Shown here piece by piece: positions 1,975 through 38,270 of a stretch of DNA of 64,000 bases. Location: assembly GCA_041650715.1 (NCBI GenBank), contig JBAZKQ010000001.1, positions 454,945 through 518,944 on the forward strand. The letters are read 5' to 3'. The translations under genes and the position numbers were made by a program. The notes below the pieces were generated by a model that saw nothing but the letters and a program-made list of their open reading frames with translations, was not told the DNA's origin and made no database searches. Numbering within the stretch: the first letter of the stretch is position 1; each line of letters opens with the position of its first letter. The DNA comes from Patescibacteria group bacterium. Its GTDB lineage: Bacteria > Patescibacteriota > Patescibacteriia > Patescibacteriales > UBA12465.

Positions 1975-2961
1975 ATGATATTAGGAAAACCTCTCAATGA
2001 GGATATGCAACTCCGGCCCATTAAATATCCCTGGGCATATGAATTATATAATCAAGCGGTCGCTAATACTTGGTTTCCGCACGAAATCGCGCTCGGCGAA
2101 GATTTGGGCGATTGGAAAAAAATGACGGAAGACGAAAGGCACGCCGTCGGCTTTCTCATGAGTTTCTTTAATCCGGCTGAATTAATCGTCAACCGAACTT
2201 TGGCTCTTGGCGTATACCCCTATTTAAAAGCGCCCGAAGCCCATTTATACCTGGCGAAACAAATGTGGGAAGAGGCTAACCATTGTATGGCTTTTGAATA
2301 TGTTTTAGAAACTTTCCCGCTTGACCGTGAAACCGTCTTCCAGCAGCATCTCGAAACTCCGTCCATTAAAGCCAAGGAAGATTGGATCGCTCAATTTTTA
2401 CTGAGAATGAATGAGACGAGCTTAAATATCGAAACAACCGAAGGTAAGAAAGATTTTGTACGTAATTTAATCGCCTATAATATTGTCATGGAAGGAATTT
2501 GGTTCTATAGCGGTTTTATGGTCGCGCTCAGTTTTCGCCAGAGAAATCAGCTGAAAAATTTTGGATCCTTAATCGATTGGGTCGTGCGCGACGAAAGTTT
2601 GCATCTTAAATTCGGCATTAATTTAATTCTCACGATTTTAGAAGAAAATCCGGATATCGTGACACCGGAATTTAGCCAAGAACTGCAGGGCATAATTATC
2701 GACGGAGTTAATCTCGAAACAAGTTATAATCAAGACATGTTTCCGCGCGGCATCTTAGGTTTAAATGCCGACTACGTTAATCAATATGTGCAATATGTGG
2801 CTGACCGCCGTTTGGAAGAATTAGGCTTCAAGGCGCATTACAATGTGAGCAACCCGGCGAAATGGATGGCGACGGCAACCGACACCCTCGAGCTCGTGAA
2901 CTTCTTCGAAACCCAAAATACTAATTATGAGGTGGATGGACGAGCTGGTCAAAATAAATAA
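1975..2961 (+). CDS. nrdB: Ribonucleotide reductase small (beta) subunit with class Ic-type substitutions
   Basis: Ferritin-like R2 motifs are present: ERHAVGFLMSFFNPAELIVN, EEANHCMAF, EGIWFYSGF, RDESLHL. I moved the start from 1855 to the ATG at 1975 (MILGKP) because that ATG has the local aataaatatATG start context and 1855-1919 overlaps the nrdA tail. Confidence 0.9.
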   Translation: MILGKPLNEDMQLRPIKYPWAYELYNQAVANTWFPHEIALGEDLGDWKKMTEDERHAVGFLMSFFNPAELIVNRTLALGVYPYLKAPEAHLYLAKQMWEEANHCMAFEYVLETFPLDRETVFQQHLETPSIKAKEDWIAQFLLRMNETSLNIETTEGKKDFVRNLIAYNIVMEGIWFYSGFMVALSFRQRNQLKNFGSLIDWVVRDESLHLKFGINLILTILEENPDIVTPEFSQELQGIIIDGVNLETSYNQDMFPRGILGLNADYVNQYVQYVADRRLEELGFKAHYNVSNPAKWMATATDTLELVNFFETQNTNYEVDGRAGQNK

Positions 2962-3008
2962 AAAAAGGGGGCTCTTTTCATAAAACCTTAGTTTTATGAT
3001 AGAACCCC
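2961..3008 (-). terminator. Intrinsic terminator read on the minus strand
   Basis: Minus strand reads GGGGUUCUAUCAUAAAAC-UAAG-GUUUUAUGAAAAGAGCCCC followed by U7. The plus-strand reading has no U-run after the hairpin. Confidence 0.6.
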
Positions 3009-3137
3009 GACACGCGCGTGTCACTCAAGCTCCGGATATTTTCCAGTAATCTGCCGCCCGTTGGCCGTAACCAGCGTGACCGCCCAAAGGAAAAGTCCTT
3101 CATTGCTCAAGCATTAAGCAAGCCGTAGCTTAACTCT
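2962..3137 (-). ncRNA. Candidate ~175-nt small RNA of unknown class, convergent with nrdB
   Basis: It is bounded by a TTGACA-17-TAGCAT promoter and the U7 terminator and contains no ORF. Its 5' UUAAGCUACGG can pair with the 3' CCGGAGCUUGA. Internal hairpins are UUGCUU/GAGCAA, AAGGA/UCCUU and GACAC-GCGC-GUGUC. Confidence 0.4.
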
Positions 3138-27650: not shown

Positions 27651-28232
27651 TTATAACAAAGTCTTCTCTGCTTGTTGATATACATGACCGAGCTCATCGA
27701 CTATCGGATTATCCAATTTCGCTTTTAGGACCTTAAATATTTCCTCATATAACCAGAGCTTCTTCTCTTTCGGGGAGTTAAAATGTGCCCAAAGCTCTTC
27801 GCCCTTTTCCCTGTAAGCGTTAATCATTGACTGAAGATTATGAATTTTGTCGGCTGCGCAAACTATTAACGATTCCTCACTATCATCATAAAGTCCGTCT
27901 AAATATTTTTGCTTTCTTGCCTCCCAAGTTGCCTTTTCATCACTTTCAACGTTAGGATCTTTATCCTCACTTACCCCCTGAACAATCTCGGCCACCTTTT
28001 CGCCAAAATCTCGTTTAAGGTCTTCGTAGTAGTAACCTTTAACGTCCTCCAGAACGTCATGGAGCAGGCCACCAATGATTATATCTTCGTCTTCGGTATA
28101 ATTACTCAATATCCAGGCAACCGAGAAGGGGTGGCTGATATAGGGCAAATCATCATCACCCTTGCGCGTCTGCCCGAGATGCAGACGGCTCGCTAAATTA
28201 ACTGCTTTTTGTATTCTTGGACTTAATTTCAT
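27651..28232 (-). CDS. Small alarmone hydrolase-like HD protein (RelA/SpoT hydrolase domain only)
   Basis: AVNLASRLHLGQTRKGDDDLPYISHPFSVAWIL...GLLHDVLEDV...DKIHNL. Confidence 0.8.
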   Translation of the reverse strand: MKLSPRIQKAVNLASRLHLGQTRKGDDDLPYISHPFSVAWILSNYTEDEDIIIGGLLHDVLEDVKGYYYEDLKRDFGEKVAEIVQGVSEDKDPNVESDEKATWEARKQKYLDGLYDDSEESLIVCAADKIHNLQSMINAYREKGEELWAHFNSPKEKKLWLYEEIFKVLKAKLDNPIVDELGHVYQQAEKTLL

Positions 28233-28710
28233 ATTCGTATTCGCTTAAATGATTAATAATGAAGTTGGCAGCATTAATTATGTTCTTCTTGTTTCTTAAC
28301 ATATTTCCGCCCGATTCATAAAATAGAACTGGGGCTGCACCATTTATTTCTTCCGGCCTACTTACCATTGAAGTTATAAAGGCATTTAGATGGCTTGACT
28401 GGTCAGACAATACTCCGGTTATTCTTCCCAGTCTAATGCCAATATGCTCATTAGCAACTTTATATCTCGTTACTCCCGGATCGAATATAAAGAGCGCGAA
28501 TTCTTCACAGACTTCTAGTGCCTGGCTCCGAATAAAATCTATGCCTCTAAAATACTCTCCTATTATAGCATTTATTTCCATTAAAGCTTTCGGGGCGAGA
28601 CTAAGGCGCGGTAATTCTTTCGCCATGTAAAGCAGATTGTCGCAAATCTCGTTAATCTGCCAATAGATTTCCGAACTCTTTTCTTTCATTTTGTTTTCGA
28701 TATTTTTCAT
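28198..28710 (-). CDS. Hypothetical protein, first gene of the leader-controlled operon
   Basis: AGGAGG (28724-28719) lies 8 nt before the ATG at 28710. The GTG at 28719 in the ORF track is part of the SD. The 3' end overlaps the HD gene by 35 nt. Confidence 0.55.
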   Translation of the reverse strand: MKNIENKMKEKSSEIYWQINEICDNLLYMAKELPRLSLAPKALMEINAIIGEYFRGIDFIRSQALEVCEEFALFIFDPGVTRYKVANEHIGIRLGRITGVLSDQSSHLNAFITSMVSRPEEINGAAPVLFYESGGNMLRNKKNIINAANFIINHLSEYEYEIKSKNTKSS

Positions 28711-28738
28711 ATTTATCACCTCCTTACTAGCTTAACCA

Positions 28739-28927
28739 CAAAAAAAGCGGCTAAGAGATTTCACCAAAAGATATAAATATCTCTATAGTTGAAATCTCCC
28801 AACCGCCTTAACGATTAGTCATTTATTTCATCTGGCTTGCCGCAGATTTCCCAGCTTGCCTATCCGCTTATAGCGGAAGAAATAAATGGCGCCTTTATCC
28901 TTAGCGCGAAGTAGGGTTGTTAATTAT
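28739..28927 (-). promoter_or_regulatory. Structured leader RNA (riboswitch or attenuator candidate, class unknown) ending in an intrinsic terminator
   Basis: A 10-bp closing helix CAUUUAUUUC/GAAAUAAAUG (28888-28879 with 28829-28820) encloses a 3-way junction (UCCGC-UAUAA-GCGGA; CUGG...CCAG). A 17-bp terminator stem plus U7 follows (28806-28739). The GAAAUCU inside the junction equals the terminator 3' arm. Confidence 0.5.
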
Positions 28928-28933
28928 GTTAGT

Positions 28934-28962
28934 AGTATAGCAAAAATAAGCATTAACGGCAA
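28934..28962 (-). promoter_or_regulatory. Sigma-70 promoter of the leader and operon
   Basis: Minus strand reads TTGCCG-17-TATACT. Confidence 0.5.
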
Positions 28963-29071
28963 GTTTACTAACTTAAGTATGTAATACAGCGGGGCTCCGC
29001 AGATTACATATTTACGGAATTATTTAATATATATCCGGCGATCAAGATAAGCCTGGATAAACTAAGCAAAA

Positions 29072-29794
29072 TTAAGTTAACGACCACGTCCAACTAGTTC
29101 TATAAACGACCTTATTATCTTTTGATGTCCAAATTCTTTTCTCCCACATATCAGTTTTCGGATCACCTCCAAATTTACTAGATTCATTCATGTCTTTATA
29201 AACATCCTCGCCTATATAAATATGATATTGACCTTCAGAAAGAGATGACAGTTTCACCGCATAATTAGTGGCATTACCAACCCAAACTAAATCATTGTTA
29301 TTTTCACCTCTAATACCGCCCCTTACTATTAAAACTTTTCCGACCTCTATTCCTATCCCGAAATCAAATTCTAGATCACTCAATTGATTATTATTACTAA
29401 AATAGGTATCTAATTTAGGCTTTAAAACTTTTAAACAAAACCAGCTCATTTGCATAGCTGCTTTTGCTGCATTAGTTCTTTTTGACCCTCCGCTAAAAAC
29501 AATTAAAACACCGTCACCGTTAAAGCTTCTCAATTCTCCATTATTAAACTTTGCAATTTTTGCAACTCCATATAAAAACGATTTATACATTTTTGCGGCA
29601 GTAGTTCTCCTGAAACCGTCCACAATTTTTGTAGACTCTCTAATATCAATAAACAACATCGCCAATTCCATCTCCCTACCTTTTTTACCAAATTCCAAAT
29701 CTCCAACATCAGGCACAACAGTGCCTTGAGTTATTTCATAGTTACCATCAAAAAAATCATCAACAGCTTTTTCTATATCGGCCTTATTACTCAT
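29072..29794 (-). CDS. Stand-alone class III nucleotidyl cyclase (Pycsar PycC-like)
   Basis: MELAMLFIDIRESTKI (metal Asp), FNGDGVLIVF (second metal Asp), VWVGNATNYAVKL. It is 240 aa with no sensor domain and lies 3 nt after the small TM protein gene. Confidence 0.75.
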   Translation of the reverse strand: MSNKADIEKAVDDFFDGNYEITQGTVVPDVGDLEFGKKGREMELAMLFIDIRESTKIVDGFRRTTAAKMYKSFLYGVAKIAKFNNGELRSFNGDGVLIVFSGGSKRTNAAKAAMQMSWFCLKVLKPKLDTYFSNNNQLSDLEFDFGIGIEVGKVLIVRGGIRGENNNDLVWVGNATNYAVKLSSLSEGQYHIYIGEDVYKDMNESSKFGGDPKTDMWEKRIWTSKDNKVVYRTSWTWSLT

Positions 29795-29797
29795 ATG

Positions 29798-30292
29798 CTA
29801 AAAAATTTTTACAAGAAAAAAAATGAAAATAATTATAAATGACAAAATAAAAATTGACACAGACTCTGAAAAAAATTTTAATTTTTTATTCACTATTAAA
29901 GAAGAAATATATATCTGATCTAGCAAATCATCTTTATAATCATCATCGTCATAAGCGATCATTTTTTCTTTATACTTTTTTAAACTGTTTTTTGCGATTG
30001 AGCCAAAATAAATCATAGACTCTTTACCCGTGCTAACTTTAACTGTCGGTAAAATCGAAAAAATTGTTTTTAATACACTATAAAAACACAGTATTAATAC
30101 TAATATCAATATAACGATATCGAAGCAGCTTACATTTTTAATATATGAAACAAATTTTTCAAAGTCAGTGCTGGAAATAATTATAGTTAAACAGACACCC
30201 TGAAAAGCAAGCCAAATACTTGACTTTTGGTCAGCGGATCTTATCCATTCATGTATTACACTTAAATTATTTTCCAAGTTTTCCTTATTCAT
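29798..30292 (-). CDS. Small three-TM protein (Pycsar PycTM-like effector candidate)
   Basis: 164 aa. N-terminal IHEWIRSADQKSSIWLAFQG, then three hydrophobic helices. It sits between res and the cyclase with 3-nt gaps. Confidence 0.5.
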   Translation of the reverse strand: MNKENLENNLSVIHEWIRSADQKSSIWLAFQGVCLTIIISSTDFEKFVSYIKNVSCFDIVILILVLILCFYSVLKTIFSILPTVKVSTGKESMIYFGSIAKNSLKKYKEKMIAYDDDDYKDDLLDQIYISSLIVNKKLKFFSESVSIFILSFIIIFIFFLVKIF

Positions 30293-30295
30293 AGT

Positions 30296-32977
30296 TTATT
30301 TTGAATAAATATCTATAAAAGACTGATAGTTATCAATCTCCTTATAATTAACCTTTATAACTTCAAAATGCTTTTTAGCGGATTCTATTTTCGCTTTTTC
30401 TGTTGGACGTAAATTATCAATGTCACCCTTAGTTTCAATCACAAAATACACCTTTTCACTTTCGTTTCCTCTTAGGTCACGCTTAGCTGTAACTATAGCC
30501 CAATCAGGATTATAACTTCCAACAGGAGTCTCAACCTTATACCAATTAGGCATCTTAATAAACAACTTAATTTGTTCATCATGTTCAAGGTCTAGGGCAA
30601 AATTCATTTCTACATCAGAATCATGAACAATGGCATCGTAAATAGACCTAGTAACTGGCAAGGTAGAATCCTTATAGCTTTCAAGCGTTTTAAATTCCTC
30701 TACTTTATAAGAATCAGAAATTACTTCATAGCTCACTTGCTCAACATAGGTCTTTACAAGTTCCTGTTTAATAATTTTACTTGCCTCAACAATGAAACGA
30801 TCAGGATTATTGAAGAAGGCCTCCCAATTATTTGCTTTAAGCACTATATCGGCAACAGTAGCCCGAGTAAGACGAGTTTGTGTCTTAATTTCGGAGATAC
30901 AGTCAATCGTTCTGCTTTGTGTGGCCACTATTTCGCCTGATTCGGACCCCAGAGCAAGAGATTTAACTCCTTCCACGGATATATTGATACCAGCACGCTC
31001 AACGCGAATGTGGGGCTTTTGTAGTCGAATCTCAGAAACAGCCTTTGCGGAATTAGTAATTAGTGATTCCGTGTTTACTTTTACTAAGTAACGAGTCTTT
31101 TTTGAAATACGGTCCCACAATTCCTTAAAGTTTTCATCTTTTTGAAAACCGGGCTTAAGTACGATCTTGCTGCGCTGTTTTGCATTGTAAGGCAACTGAG
31201 GTGTCTTATAAATACCATCTTCTTGGAATTCTGCCTGCAAACTTGCGACGTAGTCGGCATAACTTATATTGGCGATAACTGAAAGTAAGTTAATGTGCCT
31301 ATCAAAAATACGATCACCGTCTTGATTGACGCAAAGACGCATGCCGCGACCAATCTCTTGCCGCTTCTTCATGGTTGAAGTTGTTTCGTTTAAAGTACAG
31401 ATATTAAACACATTAGGATTATCCCAACCCTCTCGGAGTGCTGAATGGGAGAAAATAAACTCGACAGGCTCAGAAAAAGACAAAAGACGTTCCTTATCCT
31501 TCATGATAAGCTCATAGGCTTCATCATTTTTCTCAATAGCTGATTCTTGTTCAACAAAACTACCATCCTTCTTTTTCGCAAAATATCCGGTATGAAGTGA
31601 ATCAGTGGAATTCTGCCCTAGCGTAAACGTGTCTTTTACTTTTGATAATTCTTCTGTAAATATCTTACGAATTAATCCATCAGCGCCGGCATAGTTTGCA
31701 ACTTTATCAATAAAGAAAAGACTAAGCACTTTAATATCAGAGTCTTTATATTTTTGTTTTTTCTCAATGTGAAGTCGGATAGTCTCAGAAATTTGTCTTC
31801 GCCATATATCTTCCTTATTTTGATTAATTGCAGTCCCTCTAGAAAGAATAAACCCATTGGTAAAATGTACTTTACCCTCAGAGCCAAACTCAGGCGCATC
31901 AGCATCTATATTCGAAACCACATATCCGCTATAAGCCTTGTTATTAGTTATATTTACAAGATCATCTCCTTTTTTTAAATTAATCGCCTTAATTTTTCTA
32001 TTACCATCACCATCTGCAAATGCGAGTTCAGCTTTTGCTTTAATGCCACTGGCGGTTTTTGCTGGTTTCGCTTCAACAAAAACCATATGAGGAGTAGAGC
32101 TACCACTATCGTCATCCGTTACAGAGAAAACCTCTATTTTTTTAACAAGACCTAACTGGTAAGCGTCATATGGGGTAAGCTGATGAACAAGGTTATATAG
32201 ATTTTTATGAGTAGCAGAATAACGCAAACGGAATAATGCATTGAAATTTTCAAGAGCTTTCTTTGTTGCTTCACCCTCCATATTTTGAGGCTCATCAAGA
32301 ATAAGGATTGGATTAGTCTTTTTAATAAACTCGATTGGTTGTTCGCCTTGCATTTGGTCCCGGACACCATAAAGAACATTAGCATCTTTATTAAACGCTC
32401 CAACTGTCATGACCATGATATTAATCACACTGCTATCAGCAAAATGACGAACTTGAGATATATTCTTTGATTTGTATTCATAAAATCTAAAAGGGGTATT
32501 TGCATACAATTCTTTGAAGTGATCTTCGGTAATTTTGAGGGTTTTAATAACACCCTCGCGGATAGCAACGGAAGGTACTAAAATAATAAACTTCTTCCAG
32601 CCATACTTTTGATTAAGCTCAAAGATAGTTCGCAAATAAACATAAGTCTTACCCGTACCGGTTTCCATCTCAATTGAGATGTCTTTAACATTCGCTTCAA
32701 GACCGATAGGTGATCCTTCTTCAGTAAGTAAAGCAAAACCATCTTCGGTTAAAAGTTTATCCCCACCTGAGATTGCTAAATTTTGCGCTTTTTGACAATT
32801 CTGAATGTTTTTTAATATATCGTCATCTGATAAAGTCATTAGATTTGGATAAATACCAAATAAACCAGCTCCAGCTATAGTCTGTTCTGTAGTTTTTTCT
32901 TGCCCATCAAAACAATCAACTACTGAGTTGATGGCTTGTAATTGGAATTCTTGGTTTGGGTCAAACTTAAATTTCAT
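30296..32977 (-). CDS. res: Type III restriction enzyme Res subunit (SF2 helicase plus PD-(D/E)xK nuclease)
   Basis: METGTGKTYVY (Walker A), ILDEPQNM (motif II), SALREGWDNPNV (motif VI), C-terminal YNPDWAIV...YFVIETKG. Confidence 0.9.
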   Translation of the reverse strand: MKFKFDPNQEFQLQAINSVVDCFDGQEKTTEQTIAGAGLFGIYPNLMTLSDDDILKNIQNCQKAQNLAISGGDKLLTEDGFALLTEEGSPIGLEANVKDISIEMETGTGKTYVYLRTIFELNQKYGWKKFIILVPSVAIREGVIKTLKITEDHFKELYANTPFRFYEYKSKNISQVRHFADSSVINIMVMTVGAFNKDANVLYGVRDQMQGEQPIEFIKKTNPILILDEPQNMEGEATKKALENFNALFRLRYSATHKNLYNLVHQLTPYDAYQLGLVKKIEVFSVTDDDSGSSTPHMVFVEAKPAKTASGIKAKAELAFADGDGNRKIKAINLKKGDDLVNITNNKAYSGYVVSNIDADAPEFGSEGKVHFTNGFILSRGTAINQNKEDIWRRQISETIRLHIEKKQKYKDSDIKVLSLFFIDKVANYAGADGLIRKIFTEELSKVKDTFTLGQNSTDSLHTGYFAKKKDGSFVEQESAIEKNDEAYELIMKDKERLLSFSEPVEFIFSHSALREGWDNPNVFNICTLNETTSTMKKRQEIGRGMRLCVNQDGDRIFDRHINLLSVIANISYADYVASLQAEFQEDGIYKTPQLPYNAKQRSKIVLKPGFQKDENFKELWDRISKKTRYLVKVNTESLITNSAKAVSEIRLQKPHIRVERAGINISVEGVKSLALGSESGEIVATQSRTIDCISEIKTQTRLTRATVADIVLKANNWEAFFNNPDRFIVEASKIIKQELVKTYVEQVSYEVISDSYKVEEFKTLESYKDSTLPVTRSIYDAIVHDSDVEMNFALDLEHDEQIKLFIKMPNWYKVETPVGSYNPDWAIVTAKRDLRGNESEKVYFVIETKGDIDNLRPTEKAKIESAKKHFEVIKVNYKEIDNYQSFIDIYSK

Positions 32978-32982
32978 AATTA

Positions 32983-34800
32983 TTAAATGGTTTTCAGATC
33001 AAGGTTAAGCGCTAAATTAGCAGCCATCGTGTCGTCCAAAGCGCCCTCAAGACAGATAAATAATTTATCTTTATACAATTTATCAGTAAGCGCTTTTACG
33101 GTTTCTGGGGTAAGTTTTCTTTCAAGACAAACAAAAAAATGCTGTTCACCATCGGTAATTTGATAAACATTATTCTTACCAAGTAAAATTTTATCAACCT
33201 TACTATTCAGCGACAAACCCTCTTTTACGATATTCTCATAGATGATACTAATATCATTTTCCTTATCAAACAATTGGCTTTGTTTTGCTTTATCCAAATA
33301 GGTAATAAATGCTTGTTGATTCTCTTCGGATGACTTTTGAGGATTAAAAACAAAAGTATTTTCAGGGTAGTTTGATTCGGAAAGTATAAAAAACTTAAAA
33401 CCTGAATTAATAGGTTTTGGATTTTTACCATAGCCATTAATAACATTTTTAATTCTAGTTTTAGTGATATCTAGAATTGTTTTAAAACCATACTTATAGC
33501 CTAGAGTATCTGTGTCTATTTTTTCGGGCAACTGCACAGTAATAAACTTACGATTGCCACCATCCAGTTCGTTCTGTGCTAAAACAGCATGAGCGGTCGT
33601 ACCTGATCCAGCAAAAAAATCAAGAATAATATCATTTTGGTTATTTTTTGTAGTATGAAAAATAAGTTTTTGTATCAAAGCTACAGGCTTTACGGTCTCA
33701 AATTCATGAACATCCGTGCCTAAAACTTCTGTCAATTCTGATTTACCCGTTTCAGCAGTCCCATAAGTATCTTTATCAAAAAAATGGGACCAAAAAGGAC
33801 TAAACCTTTCAAGGTTTTCATCATCAGGTCTTATTCTGAAGTATGCCTTGCCGTCAATCACTTCTACATCTCCTCGTTCTTGAAAGAATTGCACAGTATC
33901 AACTCCAACTTTCCACTGAAAACCATCTCTAGGAGAAACTCCAAGAATTGGATAAATCATTGACTGTCTTCCTCTCATGCCTATGGCAGACATTTCTTCG
34001 ACAACTTTTAATCGATACCACCCCTTGTCATCGTTTTTATCATAAACCTTCTGACCGGTTATCTCGAGATTAAACCTCATCTTTTCATTCAGTTTTTTGT
34101 AACTCAAAACATACTCTGTTTTTGATTGAAATTGTTCTCGTGCCGTCTCGGTGTTTTGTGCCTTAGTCCTTTTTTCCCAAGTAATTGTTCCTATAAAATT
34201 TTCTTCCCCAAAAATCTCATCCATTAACATTCTTAAATGATGAACTTCATTATCATCAATTGATACAAAAATAACGCCATCCTCGCGCAAAAGGTTCCAA
34301 GCTAATTTTAGACGAGGATACATCATGGAGAGCCAGTCGCTGTGATAGCGTCCGTTAGTTTCTTTGTTAGTTGTTGTGCTCTCTCCAGATTCGGTCTTTT
34401 GACCTGTTTGTTTAAGATAATTATCAAGCGGTGAACTAAAATCATCATTGTATACAAAATCGTGACCGGTATTGTAGGGCGGATCAATATAAATCATTTT
34501 TACCTTTTCAAAATATGCTTTCTGCAAAAGTTTTAAAACCTCGAGATTATCTCCTTCAATAAAAAGGTTCTCAGACTCATCCCATTTAATACTTTCTTCC
34601 GGCTTAGGATTAAGAGTTAACCTGCTAGGAATTAAAACGCTTTTAATAGCATTGCTTTTGCCGGCCCAGGTGAAAGAAAACTTATCGGACAAATTAATTG
34701 ACTGTGAACTTAGCTCCTCAATATATTTTTGTAAATTCAAAGACTTCTCAAAAAGTAAGTCGTCAGAGGTTAAATTAATTTTTGTGGGTTTTTTATTCAT
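32983..34800 (-). CDS. mod: Type III restriction-modification Mod subunit (beta-class N6-adenine/N4-cytosine DNA methyltransferase)
   Basis: IYIDPPYNTGHDF (DPPY) lies before ILDFFAGSGTTAHAV (FxGxG). It is directly upstream of res. Confidence 0.9.
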   Translation of the reverse strand: MNKKPTKINLTSDDLLFEKSLNLQKYIEELSSQSINLSDKFSFTWAGKSNAIKSVLIPSRLTLNPKPEESIKWDESENLFIEGDNLEVLKLLQKAYFEKVKMIYIDPPYNTGHDFVYNDDFSSPLDNYLKQTGQKTESGESTTTNKETNGRYHSDWLSMMYPRLKLAWNLLREDGVIFVSIDDNEVHHLRMLMDEIFGEENFIGTITWEKRTKAQNTETAREQFQSKTEYVLSYKKLNEKMRFNLEITGQKVYDKNDDKGWYRLKVVEEMSAIGMRGRQSMIYPILGVSPRDGFQWKVGVDTVQFFQERGDVEVIDGKAYFRIRPDDENLERFSPFWSHFFDKDTYGTAETGKSELTEVLGTDVHEFETVKPVALIQKLIFHTTKNNQNDIILDFFAGSGTTAHAVLAQNELDGGNRKFITVQLPEKIDTDTLGYKYGFKTILDITKTRIKNVINGYGKNPKPINSGFKFFILSESNYPENTFVFNPQKSSEENQQAFITYLDKAKQSQLFDKENDISIIYENIVKEGLSLNSKVDKILLGKNNVYQITDGEQHFFVCLERKLTPETVKALTDKLYKDKLFICLEGALDDTMAANLALNLDLKTI

Positions 34801-36568: not shown

Positions 36569-37819
36569 TTAAAAAAATTTAATTAATTTATTAGCAATCA
36601 ACGACGATAGCATAGGCGGTACCGCATTTCCAATTTGTTTGTATTGAGCAGATCTACTTCCTTCAAATATAAAATCATCAGGAAATGTCTGAAGACGAGC
36701 CGCCTCTCTAACTGTTAGCGATCTATTCTGCTCAGCATCTGGATGTATATAATAATGTCCATCTTTTGATATGTGCGCTATAACAGTATGACTGCTGGCC
36801 GCAGCACCATCAACAACTTTAAACCTATCTAAAAATCCCGTCTGGTTCTTGTGAGTCTTTAATTTATTTGGCAGTTCATTATATTTTATATTATGACCAT
36901 TATTCTTCTCCTTAACCGCCATCTTGTAGATAGTCAGGTCTTGTTTGTTATTTGGTCGCGCAGCATGACCCAGCAAAACTCCGAAATTATTTGTAATACC
37001 CAACTTATCTAATATCTTAGATTTACTTTTAAACTTAGTCGCGACAGAACCTTCTCCGGACTTTAATTTTGGTAGATCTAATAAAAAATCACTAACTTTA
37101 TAGTTTCTGTCTACTTTGTCAAAAACTGGATATGATTTTAAATTAGCCTTGGAATTCCAACCTATAAGAATAACCCTTCTTCGTTCCTGAGGAACGCCAT
37201 ATTCAGCGGCATTCAATATGCTAAATTCGGTGTTGTAACCGGCAGCTTTCATCGCTAGACGCATACTATTCAAATACATTCCCTTACCAGAACTTAATAG
37301 ACCGGGAACATTTTCGAAAATAAAAACCTTCGGTTTAAGAGCCTTTAAAAATTCCACATAATACTGATATAGAAATTTTCTAGGATCGCGTTTCATGTGT
37401 TTCCTGTCCGACCCTCTCCCAATATGTGAATACGCCTGACAAGGCGGCCCACCAATAATAATATCTAAATCGGCACCGTTAAGTCTTTCTTTTACTTCAC
37501 CAATTAACTGAGCATAATTGTCACGACTTATTTTTTCCTGAATAACAGAATCTATCTCTTTATTTAATTTATATTTGCTAACTATTTCTTCCCTAGTTTT
37601 TTCTCCTAACAGATATTTTTTATACTCCTCTAGTTTTCCTTTCTTTCTTAAAGCATGATAAACCATTCTCGTTCGAATCGTCTCGCAAGCCTCTTTATCC
37701 ATTTCAATATGCGCCACAATATCACATCCGGATAAAATAAAACCTTCAGAAAAACCTCCGACTCCGGCAAAAAGGTCTAACACCATTGGCTTTTTAGTTT
37801 GCGATTTTTTTTTCTTCAT
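36569..37819 (-). CDS. dcm: DNA (cytosine-5) methyltransferase
   Basis: LDLFAGVGGFSEGF (I), GGPPCQAYS (IV), FIFENVPGL (VI), QERRRVILIG (VIII), TVREAARLQTFPDDF (IX), GNAVPP (X). Confidence 0.95.
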   Translation of the reverse strand: MKKKKSQTKKPMVLDLFAGVGGFSEGFILSGCDIVAHIEMDKEACETIRTRMVYHALRKKGKLEEYKKYLLGEKTREEIVSKYKLNKEIDSVIQEKISRDNYAQLIGEVKERLNGADLDIIIGGPPCQAYSHIGRGSDRKHMKRDPRKFLYQYYVEFLKALKPKVFIFENVPGLLSSGKGMYLNSMRLAMKAAGYNTEFSILNAAEYGVPQERRRVILIGWNSKANLKSYPVFDKVDRNYKVSDFLLDLPKLKSGEGSVATKFKSKSKILDKLGITNNFGVLLGHAARPNNKQDLTIYKMAVKEKNNGHNIKYNELPNKLKTHKNQTGFLDRFKVVDGAAASSHTVIAHISKDGHYYIHPDAEQNRSLTVREAARLQTFPDDFIFEGSRSAQYKQIGNAVPPMLSSLIANKLIKFF

Positions 37820-37923: not shown

Positions 37924-37954
37924 AAAAAAATAAGCTAACATTAGCTTATTTTTT
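37924..37954. terminator. Bidirectional hairpin terminator after the tRNA
   Basis: A7-TAAGCTAA-ca-TTAGCTTA-T6. Confidence 0.65.
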
Positions 37955-37959
37955 GCTTG

Positions 37960-38270
37960 CTCCCAGGGTCGGATTCGAACCGACGACCAATTGGTTACAC
38001 TTATCCACTAATTTCTTAATGGGGTGGACTATATCATCATCCTTAAATTAAGGATGCGAGGCGCTTCGGGCCATCTTGCGATGGACCTACTCCCTTTCAG
38101 GATAGTCTCTGAACCTTCCATGACCTCCATGGCTTGGCTGCTGATTACCATATCCATATGGATTTAGGCTTCCAGACAATTCACCTCGTTTTCGGTGCTG
38201 ATTACTCAGCAGAGCTGCGTTTAGAACTACGTGTTCACAGCCAACTGCGCTACCGCTGCGCTACCTGGGA
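37960..38270 (-). tRNA. tRNA-Asn(GUU) interrupted by a group I intron (exons 38270-38237 and 37997-37960; CCA not encoded)
   Basis: 5' exon: TCCCAGG-TA-GCGC-AGCGGTA-GCGC-A-GTTGG-CTGT. 3' exon: TAA-CCAAT-TGGTC-GTCGG-TTCGAAT-CCGAC-CCTGGGA-G. Together they form a 72-nt cloverleaf with anticodon loop CUGUUAA and G73. Confidence 0.8.
37998..38236 (-). ncRNA. Group I self-splicing intron (239 nt, no ORF)
   Basis: P1 GGCUGU/GCAGCU has a U-G wobble at the 5' splice site, and the terminal nucleotide is G. GNRA hairpins are GCUGA-GUAA-UCAGC, CCAUC-GCAA-GAUGG and CCAUUAA-GAAA-UUAGUGG. Core strings AUGGUAAUCAGCAGCCAAGCC, UUCAGAGACUAUCC and GAUAUAGUCC resemble those of the Tetrahymena, Azoarcus and Anabaena introns. 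Confidence 0.8.

Follow-up and report, generated by a model that had tools for sequence, protein, structure and literature searches.

What does the promoter-bearing leader at minus-strand positions 28962–28740 of a 64,000-nucleotide stretch (hereafter the window, meaning the whole stretch analysed) of contig JBAZKQ010000001.1 from a Patescibacteria group bacterium do, and to what signal would it respond? The leader precedes genes for a 170-amino-acid (170-aa) protein and a protein of the HD_4 family. An initial annotation, made from the letters alone, had read it as an unclassified structured leader with a terminator/antiterminator arrangement. That reading is supported here, with one helix (P3) redrawn and with hairpin P4 added as a second, more classical candidate antiterminator. 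The leader is a real structured RNA, previously uncatalogued. It is very probably a cis-acting transcription attenuator, and the case that it is also a small-molecule riboswitch of a new class is evenly balanced. Taken as a whole, we lean slightly towards a riboswitch-like attenuator, probably an ON switch, placed before a cassette of the 170-aa protein and a RelH-like small alarmone hydrolase (SAH).

The leader is laid out as follows, read on the minus strand, with paired regions denoted P, joining strands J and loops L.

28962–28740, minus strand: leader, from the promoter through the U-tract
28962–28934, minus strand: promoter, with −35 box TTGCCG (28962–28957), a 17-nt spacer and TG-extended −10 box TATACT (28939–28934); score 9/12 with TG
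28907–28889, minus strand: hairpin P0, GCGCU-AAGGAUAAA-GGCGC, immediately adjoining P1 on its 5' side
28888–28820, minus strand: three-way junction domain P1/P2/P3
28888–28879 with 28829–28820, minus strand: P1, a perfect 10-bp helix of CAUUUAUUUC with GAAAUAAAUG
28877–28863, minus strand: hairpin P2, UCCGC-UAUAA-GCGGA
28862–28861, minus strand: J2/3, UA
28860–28834, minus strand: P3, with the conserved helix GGC-AA-GCUG / CGGC-AA-GCC
28851–28843, minus strand: loop L3, GGAAAUCUG, with the heptamer GAAAUCU (28850–28844) complementary to AGAUUUC in the terminator 5' arm
28833–28830, minus strand: J3/1, AGAU
28818–28799, minus strand: hairpin P4, CUAAUCGU-UAAG-GCGGUUGG, candidate antiterminator, separated from P1 by one A
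28806–28790, minus strand: 17-nt shared strand GCGGUUGGGAGAUUUCA, the terminator 5' arm, including the 3' strand of P4 (28806–28799) and the 3' strand of the candidate pseudoknot (28797–28791)
28806–28747, minus strand: intrinsic terminator, a 17-bp stem (GCGGUUGGGAGAUUUCA, 28806–28790, with UGAAAUCUCUUAGCCGC, 28763–28747) and an apical hairpin, followed by U7 (28746–28740)
28724–28719, minus strand: Shine–Dalgarno sequence AGGAGG, 15 nt past U7
28710–28708, minus strand: ATG of the first putatively regulated gene

The TTGCCG-17-TATACT promoter, the 10-bp helix closing a three-way junction, the UCCGC-UAUAA-GCGGA hairpin and the 17-bp terminator with U7 about 15 nt ahead of the Shine–Dalgarno sequence had all been pointed out in the initial annotation and were found in place, the promoter with a TG extension. 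Hairpins P0 and P4 are additions to that structure, and the intergenic gap, given there as 352 nt, measures 361 nt (28711–29071). The heptamer GAAAUCU is present twice, in the P3 loop (28850–28844) and in the terminator 3' arm. The minimum free energy of the 225-nt leader is −75 kcal/mol, compared with −50.9 ± 4.5 kcal/mol for dinucleotide shuffles (z = −5.3; 0 of 200 shuffles as good), and the terminator hairpin contributes an energy of −32 kcal/mol. Because the energy lies below that of the shuffles and 35 homologous copies carry compensatory changes, the structure exceeds what chance would give.

The first two relatives of the leader were found on both contigs that carry homologues of the 170-aa protein, with about 90% mean column identity in a MAFFT alignment and compensatory changes already visible. 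Scanning species-representative genomes with a pattern for the P3 region returned 17 loci, 15 of them genuine, and scanning metagenomes with a second pattern, its L3 interior left free, returned 41 contigs, of which approximately 31 were genuine. The alignment set comprises 35 distinct full-length copies, mostly from Patescibacteria, or the Candidate Phyla Radiation (CPR). The patterns fixed TAGGCAA, GGG, GC and GCCAGA[TG] (parts of J2/3, P3 and J3/1), which makes these positions invariant by design; they placed no constraint on GACUAA, on the 17-mer GCGGUUGGGAGAUUUCA or, for the metagenome set, on L3. Because retrieval was by sequence patterns, divergent members of the family are missed and some invariance is imposed. 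The lineages, as labelled, are Uhrbacteria, Falkowbacteria, Staskawiczbacteria, Niyogibacteria, Parcubacteria and Peregrinibacteria/Peribacteria, with one Omnitrophota metagenome-assembled genome (MAG) and four Gammaproteobacteria MAGs also among the genuine copies. These four (loci L008, L010, L013 and L018) are labelled 'uncultured Gammaproteobacteria' and hold the leader with CPR-like cassettes; in L010 the 170-aa and HD_4 proteins are homologous to those of the window. Mislabelling of these MAGs could account for this, as could horizontal mobility of the cassette.

A covariance model built from the 35 copies gave exactly one strong match per locus (98–165 bits), with the window scoring 157.7 bits at 28740–28914 on the minus strand, and gave no match in unrelated control loci or in the rest of the window. 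No further copy of the leader was found within the window, and blastn searches of phage and plasmid collections returned no leader match. A viral origin was considered and set aside: three pattern matches in IMG/VR were unrelated GC-rich sequences. Between the window and relatives of its own cassette type, those with the 170-aa gene (p170), the leader is 80–87% identical at the nucleotide level, compared with 61–73% for the two adjacent coding sequences.

Across the 35 copies, the annotated structure pairs in 97% of alignment cells, compared with 28–50% when partners are slid by 1–3 columns. Double-sided changes occur at 17 pairs, and 0 of 500 shuffles reached any of the observed measures. Compensatory changes are found at all ten pairs of P1, all four of P2 and all three of inner P3 (GCUG/CGGC), and RNAalifold independently recovers P1, P2, P3 and the base of the terminator. 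P0 is present in 33 of 35 copies, with a 0-nt gap to P1 in 30, and its pair types vary (pair 2, CG/UA/UG; pair 3, GC/UA/CG/AU/UG). P0, P1, P2, inner P3 and the terminator base are supported by covariation. The initial annotation had named a lack of conservation or covariation of the helix and junction in relatives as the outcome that would speak against the element; the homologous upstream regions gave the opposite, with both conserved and rich in compensatory changes. Two of its details fared less well. The letters of its proposed CUGG/CCAG helix are present, but they do not form the conserved helix: the U-A pair is broken in 14 of 35 homologues, and the U column covaries within GCUG/CGGC instead. 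The sequence GGCAAGC does occur twice in the window, as had been noted, but the duplication is not kept among homologues. Complementarities between other invariant segments (AUCUG of L3 with CAGAU of J3/1, and CCAG with UUGG) were rejected as sterically or structurally incompatible with the covarying P3. Invariant nucleotides comprise J2/3 UA, the outer P3 strands GGC/GCC, GGGAAAUCUGC in L3, J3/1 AGAU(G), GACUAA and the 17-nt GCGGUUGGGAGAUUUCA, and L2 is free in both length and sequence. As expected of an aptamer-like fold, invariant junction and loop nucleotides are thus combined with covarying stems, in several CPR lineages and in other labelled MAGs.

The remainder of the leader has the layout of an attenuator, with a conserved promoter at one end and a stable hairpin and U-tract ahead of the first open reading frame at the other. 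Related loci carry TTGACT/TTGACA-like −35 and TATAAT/TATACT −10 boxes in the same place as the window, and every copy has a sigma-70-type promoter 35–50 nt upstream of P0; the sequence farther upstream differs between loci. A hairpin and a U-tract of at least four U are found in 35 of 35 copies (U5–U8 in most; weak in L011, L017 and L019), and terminator positions are paired in 92% of cells, compared with 39–54% in slid controls, with double changes at three pairs, at the base. In loci of the window's type, approximately 30 promoter-free nucleotides separate the U-tract from the start codon and, because no promoter lies between them, the downstream genes depend on read-through.

The two arms of the terminator evolve differently: the 5' arm GCGGUUGGGAGAUUUCA is near-invariant, and the 3' arm drifts (GU exchanged with GC or AU, and some mismatches). 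A strand with several partners is expected to freeze, and three possible partners of GCGGUUGGGAGAUUUCA can be identified, namely the variable 3' arm (terminator), CUAAYCGY after P1 (P4) and the L3 heptamer GAAAUCU (pseudoknot). P4 is predicted in 35 of 35 copies (−6.5 to −20.9 kcal/mol; −7 to −11 kcal/mol in 33), with a pairing probability of at least 0.9 in 27 of 35 transcripts truncated before the 3' arm. In locus L051, a C-to-U change in the shared strand is matched by G-to-A changes in both its P4 partner and its terminator partner; the P4 loop carries insertions in L017 and L046. The pairing of L3 with the arm would comprise 7 bp (duplex −8.5 kcal/mol), and 99.6% of its cells are pairable; 32 copies are identical, two have A-to-G changes compatible with G-U pairing and one (L051) has a mismatch, so that the GAAAUCU/AGAUUUC complementarity seen in the initial annotation is kept in 34 of 35. 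The heptamer was also kept in every genuine metagenome match, although the pattern left the loop interior free. Since both sides are invariant, covariation is unable to prove this pseudoknot. Between them, P4 and the pseudoknot would occupy all of the 17-mer, one stacked upon the other, with the terminator competing with both, and we infer that both do form. Two further candidate pairings were rejected. The 3' strand of P1 as a partner of the arm (UGAAAU with AUUUCA) occurs in the window but is not conserved, that strand covarying with the 5' strand of P1; GACUAA with UUAG of the 3' arm was ruled out, as the 3' arm is variable there.

Conservation does not stop at the U-tract. It continues beyond it, at 5–40 nt past the tract in related loci (e.g., in L008, L013, L021, L031, L033, L038 and L055, and at 28739–28725 in the window). 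In many loci a second hairpin, its loop containing GGUC(R), starts in or just after the U-tract; some loci have an AACGGC-NNNGA-GCYGUU hairpin ahead of the start codon, and loci of the window's type share G(G/A)YUAAGCUAG(U/A)A right before the Shine–Dalgarno sequence. This downstream conservation may reflect a further regulatory layer, possibly translational.

Which genes, then, would such an attenuator control? In the window they are arranged as follows.

28198–28710, minus strand: first gene, 170-aa protein, overlapping the second gene by 35 nt
27651–28232, minus strand: second gene, 193-aa HD_4 protein, small-alarmone-hydrolase-like (Pfam HD_4, 65.6 bits against a cut-off of 27.2)
Further downstream: S66 LD-carboxypeptidase-like, HD-containing 325-aa (p325) and aminotransferase-like genes

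The HD_4 protein matches RelH of Corynebacterium glutamicum (PDB 7qoc/7qod) over residues 3–182 with E = 2e-35 and RelH of Leptospira levettii (7qoe) with 1e-28, these entries having been described as RelH small alarmone hydrolases (PMC9293644). MESH1 (approximately 1e-10) and Rel/SpoT hydrolase domains also match. By these similarities and its Pfam score, the gene product resembles a RelH/Mesh1-type small alarmone hydrolase. The 170-aa protein has no match in Pfam, NCBIfam or PADLOC and only 2 homologues (62% identity) among 5.8 billion proteins. Its AlphaFold model is a four-helix bundle (predicted local distance difference test score, 83) for which a fold search returned no significant PDB match, only generic ferritin/Dps-like ones (E > 0.04; template modelling score approximately 0.33). 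Homologues lie downstream of the leader in L001, L002, L010, L025 and L037.

When the related loci were searched by jackhmmer with the window's HD_4 protein, 27 of 35 distinct loci proved to have a homologue as the first or second gene after the leader. Three of the eight loci where none was found are cut by contig ends, giving 27 of 32 evaluable loci, and the link to an HD alarmone-hydrolase-like gene drawn in the initial annotation is therefore a strong and general one. The genes that precede or replace HD_4 belong to a few small families: the 170-aa family (six loci), a family of approximately 103 aa ('DDNFH...FGEDPW') and one of approximately 130 aa ('QCHLW...CxxCGQLY'), none of the three with a Pfam assignment. 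The leader thus has the consistent gene association expected of a riboswitch, with HD_4 in 27 of 32 loci and recurrent small families as the other first genes. The only neighbours shared between loci are p170 and HD_4. A conserved link to Pycsar, S66 peptidase, aminotransferase or radical SAM genes was rejected, as none of these is kept beside the leader in the related loci; one p325 homologue lies approximately 6.5 kb downstream of the leader in L025.

Several RNAs and repeats were observed near these genes. SAM-I (S-adenosylmethionine) riboswitches (RF00162, 56–63 bits) lie immediately downstream of the HD_4 gene and on its strand in L009 (2291–2397, minus strand), L010 (6456–6562, minus strand) and L015 (3318–3406, plus strand), and in L066 one was recognised by eye at approximately 2250–2440, ahead of a 125-aa gene which is in turn followed by HD_4. 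Their apparent targets are very small proteins: a family of 96 aa ('YYTILGTGYG'), a Cys-rich protein of 109 aa and, in L066, the 125-aa protein. In CPR genomes, alarmone-hydrolase genes have two kinds of RNA clustered about them, SAM-sensing ones and the leader; the window itself has no SAM riboswitch. The HD_4 homologue of L066 is leaderless and is preceded (2815–3005) by an AT-rich array of short repeats (TAGTAT.., and TTCGTATCTATGAA twice). In L011, a DUF3800-IX RNA (RF02968, 55.8 bits; 3033–3096, plus strand) is found on the strand opposite to the leader, approximately 2.8 kb away.

Does the leader belong to a known class? Rfam 15, run at gathering thresholds over the whole window, matched only a group I intron elsewhere, and at E ≤ 10 the leader region gave only far-sub-threshold, miRNA-type matches to the terminator hairpin. 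Five other representative copies had no match at E ≤ 1, and at gathering thresholds no family overlapped the leader in 18 related loci. The purine, ykkC/guanidine-I/ppGpp/PRPP, c-di-GMP-I/II, ZTP, fluoride, preQ1, T-box and SAM models all fell short of the gathering threshold. As every Rfam model fails, the leader stands outside all of the families compared, in agreement with the initial annotation, which had matched the junction to no riboswitch consensus. Literature searches found no description of the motif, nor any native regulatory RNA described as specific to Patescibacteria/CPR.

Likenesses to known systems can be drawn from established knowledge, as comparisons rather than tests of membership. 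In its logic the leader would resemble pseudoknot-completed ON switches such as ZTP (pfl motif) and fluoride. As in the proposed model of the leader, a distal 3' strand there completes the sensor through a loop pseudoknot and doubles as the terminator 5' arm, such that a stabilised pseudoknot gives read-through. However, the leader shares neither sequence nor structure with them, possesses P0, a three-way junction and an extra P4, and has a pseudoknot without covariation support. Purine-type riboswitches share with the leader a compact three-way junction, bearing two hairpins and closed by P1, ahead of a terminator. In the leader, by contrast, L3 finds its match in a strand farther downstream, the junction is unrelated to theirs in sequence, no Rfam match was obtained, and purine-like L2-L3 kissing is excluded because L2 varies freely in length and sequence. 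T-box leaders resemble it in being long 5' leaders with their own promoter in which the 5' side of the terminator is an invariant block that serves again in the antiterminator, but the present leader has no Stem I/specifier architecture, no T-box model match and no tRNA link, and its antiterminator would be a simple hairpin plus a loop pseudoknot. Riboswitches for ppGpp and PRPP (ykkC subtype 2 variants) are also transcription-terminating leaders and would share the ligand class if the guess made below is right; their ykkC fold is nevertheless unrelated, with no match to the leader at E ≤ 10. They control genes of amino-acid or purine biosynthesis and transport, whereas the leader precedes an alarmone hydrolase and small proteins, in CPR bacteria.

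How, then, might the leader work? In the explanation that we favour, the transcript from the leader's own promoter would fold into P0, the three-way junction P1/P2/P3 and then P4, leaving two mutually exclusive fates for GCGGUUGGGAGAUUUCA. In the first, the strand would pair with the 3' arm to form the terminator with its U7 tract, and transcription would end approximately 30 nt before the start codon. In the second, its first half would be held in P4 by CUAAUCGU and its second half, AGAUUUC, would pair with GAAAUCU of L3 as a pseudoknot, removing the site at which the terminator nucleates, so that RNA polymerase would read through. Binding of a signal, probably a small molecule, to the junction/pseudoknot core would stabilise the second fold and make the leader an ON switch. 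Nomination as a riboswitch rests on the invariant junction and loops, the covarying stems, the gene association and a terminator platform in which one strand is shared; from these we infer that a ligand binds directly, that the switch is of the ON type and what the ligand may be. Should it be a riboswitch, ON logic is somewhat the likelier direction, and it matches a hydrolase induced by its own substrate. Because SAH genes accompany the leader almost constantly, the first candidate ligand is a hyperphosphorylated nucleotide such as (p)ppGpp or (p)ppApp, although an alarmone-type nucleotide is, on our estimate, an unlikely one.

Several points weigh against this explanation. All support for it is computational. 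Invariance of the junction is partly by construction, parts of J2/3, P3 and J3/1 having been fixed in the search patterns, and the effective sequence number is low (1.88), many copies being related. The strands of P4 and the pseudoknot are invariant or G/U-rich, so that transitions are tolerated and covariation cannot prove the pairing, and in L051 the pseudoknot would be interrupted by an A-A mismatch at its centre. In five loci whose sequence extends far enough, no HD_4 gene follows the leader. Six HD_4 homologues (59–76% identity; P0115, P0110, P0097, P0058, P0070 and P0082) lack the leader, and because these were retrieved by similarity of the protein, the link between leader and HD_4 runs one way. 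Finally, UCUYYC, on the 5' side of P1/P2, could pair with GGGAGA of the arm, as in an OFF-type design.

The best placed of the other explanations, though still doubtful, keeps the same attenuator and gives it a protein or other macromolecule as effector (a tRNA, or the alarmone hydrolase regulating itself), acting on the P4/pseudoknot fold. HD_4 alone travels with the leader in most loci and is the one common trans factor available, the invariant blocks GGGAAAUCU (L3) and GGGAGAUUU (arm) resemble each other and could be protein half-sites, and the module looks mobile, with the window's copy sitting in a low-GC island beside Pycsar and restriction-modification genes. However, HD_4/SAH enzymes are not known to be RNA-binding regulators, HD_4 is absent downstream of the five leaders mentioned above, and with the first genes drawn from at least three small, mutually unrelated families, no one of them could serve as a universal partner. 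The architecture, too, fits metabolite riboswitches, with invariant junction and loops and freely covarying stems.

An OFF riboswitch is improbable. There, UCUYYC (the end of the P1 5' strand, J1/2 and the start of the P2 5' strand) would pair with GGGAGA in the unbound state, and ligand would lock P1/P2 and let the terminator form. This pairing is possible in 98% of cells, compared with 26–66% in slid controls, and an aptamer strand that competes for a terminator arm is the commonest riboswitch design. Yet it comprises only 6 bp spanning approximately 100 nt, with no covariation among the 35 copies, and it leaves the invariance of GCGGUUGG, AUUUCA and L3, as well as the conserved P4, unexplained. 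A hydrolase switched off by its own substrate would also be unusual logic.

Less probable again is a free-standing small RNA of approximately 190 nt acting in trans (e.g., as an RNA partner or antitoxin of the cassette), with read-through incidental. A strong promoter, a very strong terminator (−32 kcal/mol), unusually high sequence conservation that includes the terminator 5' arm, and conserved sequence beyond the U-tract in many loci are all features such an RNA could have. Against it, the genes of window-type loci need read-through across the approximately 30 promoter-free nucleotides from U7 to ATG, mutually exclusive helices share one strand, and the leader always lies upstream of the cassette in the same orientation.

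Chance hairpins, or a terminator of the upstream Pycsar operon (the alternative raised in the initial annotation), are ruled out: the leader does lie 3' of the same-strand PycTM–PycC pair (PycTM, 29798–30292; PycC, 29072–29794, E = 3e-80), but it has its own promoter and 35 distinct homologous copies with covariation, a separate hairpin already follows the cyclase gene at approximately 29010–28980, the upstream sequence differs between loci, and PycC and PycTM homologues are absent from 47 of 47 related loci.

The separate hairpin (AUGUAAUCUGCGGAGCCCCGCUGUAUUACAU; 28980–29010, minus strand) is stable, lacks a U-tract, lies between the stop codon of the Pycsar cyclase and the leader promoter, and may be what actually marks the 3' end of the upstream operon. 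The wider surroundings form a low-GC stretch from approximately 14000 to 38000 (GC 0.32–0.39, and 0.41 at its 5' edge; 3' flank 0.40–0.45, 5' flank 0.38–0.44) in which only the 3' edge is sharp. It looks like a defence or mobile island. Its genes include a C5 DNA methyltransferase-like gene (36569–37819), one for a 575-aa ATPase-like protein, and type III-like mod (32983–34800) and res (30296–32977) genes; among island genes upstream of the leader, only the Pycsar pair was checked against family libraries. Exactly at the 3' edge of this stretch lies a tRNA gene interrupted by a group I intron (RF00028, 88.6 bits; 38005–38234, minus strand; flanks approximately 37930–38270). ARAGORN finds the tRNA once the intron is excised and none in the intact sequence; the exons are CCCAGGUAGCGCAG...GUUGGCU(GUGAA) and ...CCAAUUGGUCGUCGGUUCGAAUCCGACCCUGGGAGCA, and the anticodon would follow from the precise position of splicing.

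Gene regulation has hardly been explored in Patescibacteria/CPR, and this leader offers a compact (approximately 170 nt), well-defined element with a clear expression platform. If metabolite binding holds true, it would be a new riboswitch class, and its regulon, the SAH together with three small families, would reveal the signal that is monitored; if the ligand is an alarmone, alarmone degradation would for the first time be seen tied to an RNA sensor. The field of CPR genetics has stated that it lacks an inducible gene-control part (PMC11665869), which the leader could supply. A bolder reading, which we think rather unlikely, would make the leader the first riboswitch class known chiefly from Patescibacteria/CPR, one that senses (p)ppApp, (p)ppGpp or what a toxic alarmone synthetase produces and that switches on the SAH and accessory small proteins. 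Under that reading, the synthetase would be delivered by a competitor or triggered by phage, the response would be detoxification or immunity carried on mobile defence-island cassettes, and the leader would act as an RNA sensor of alarmone poisoning.

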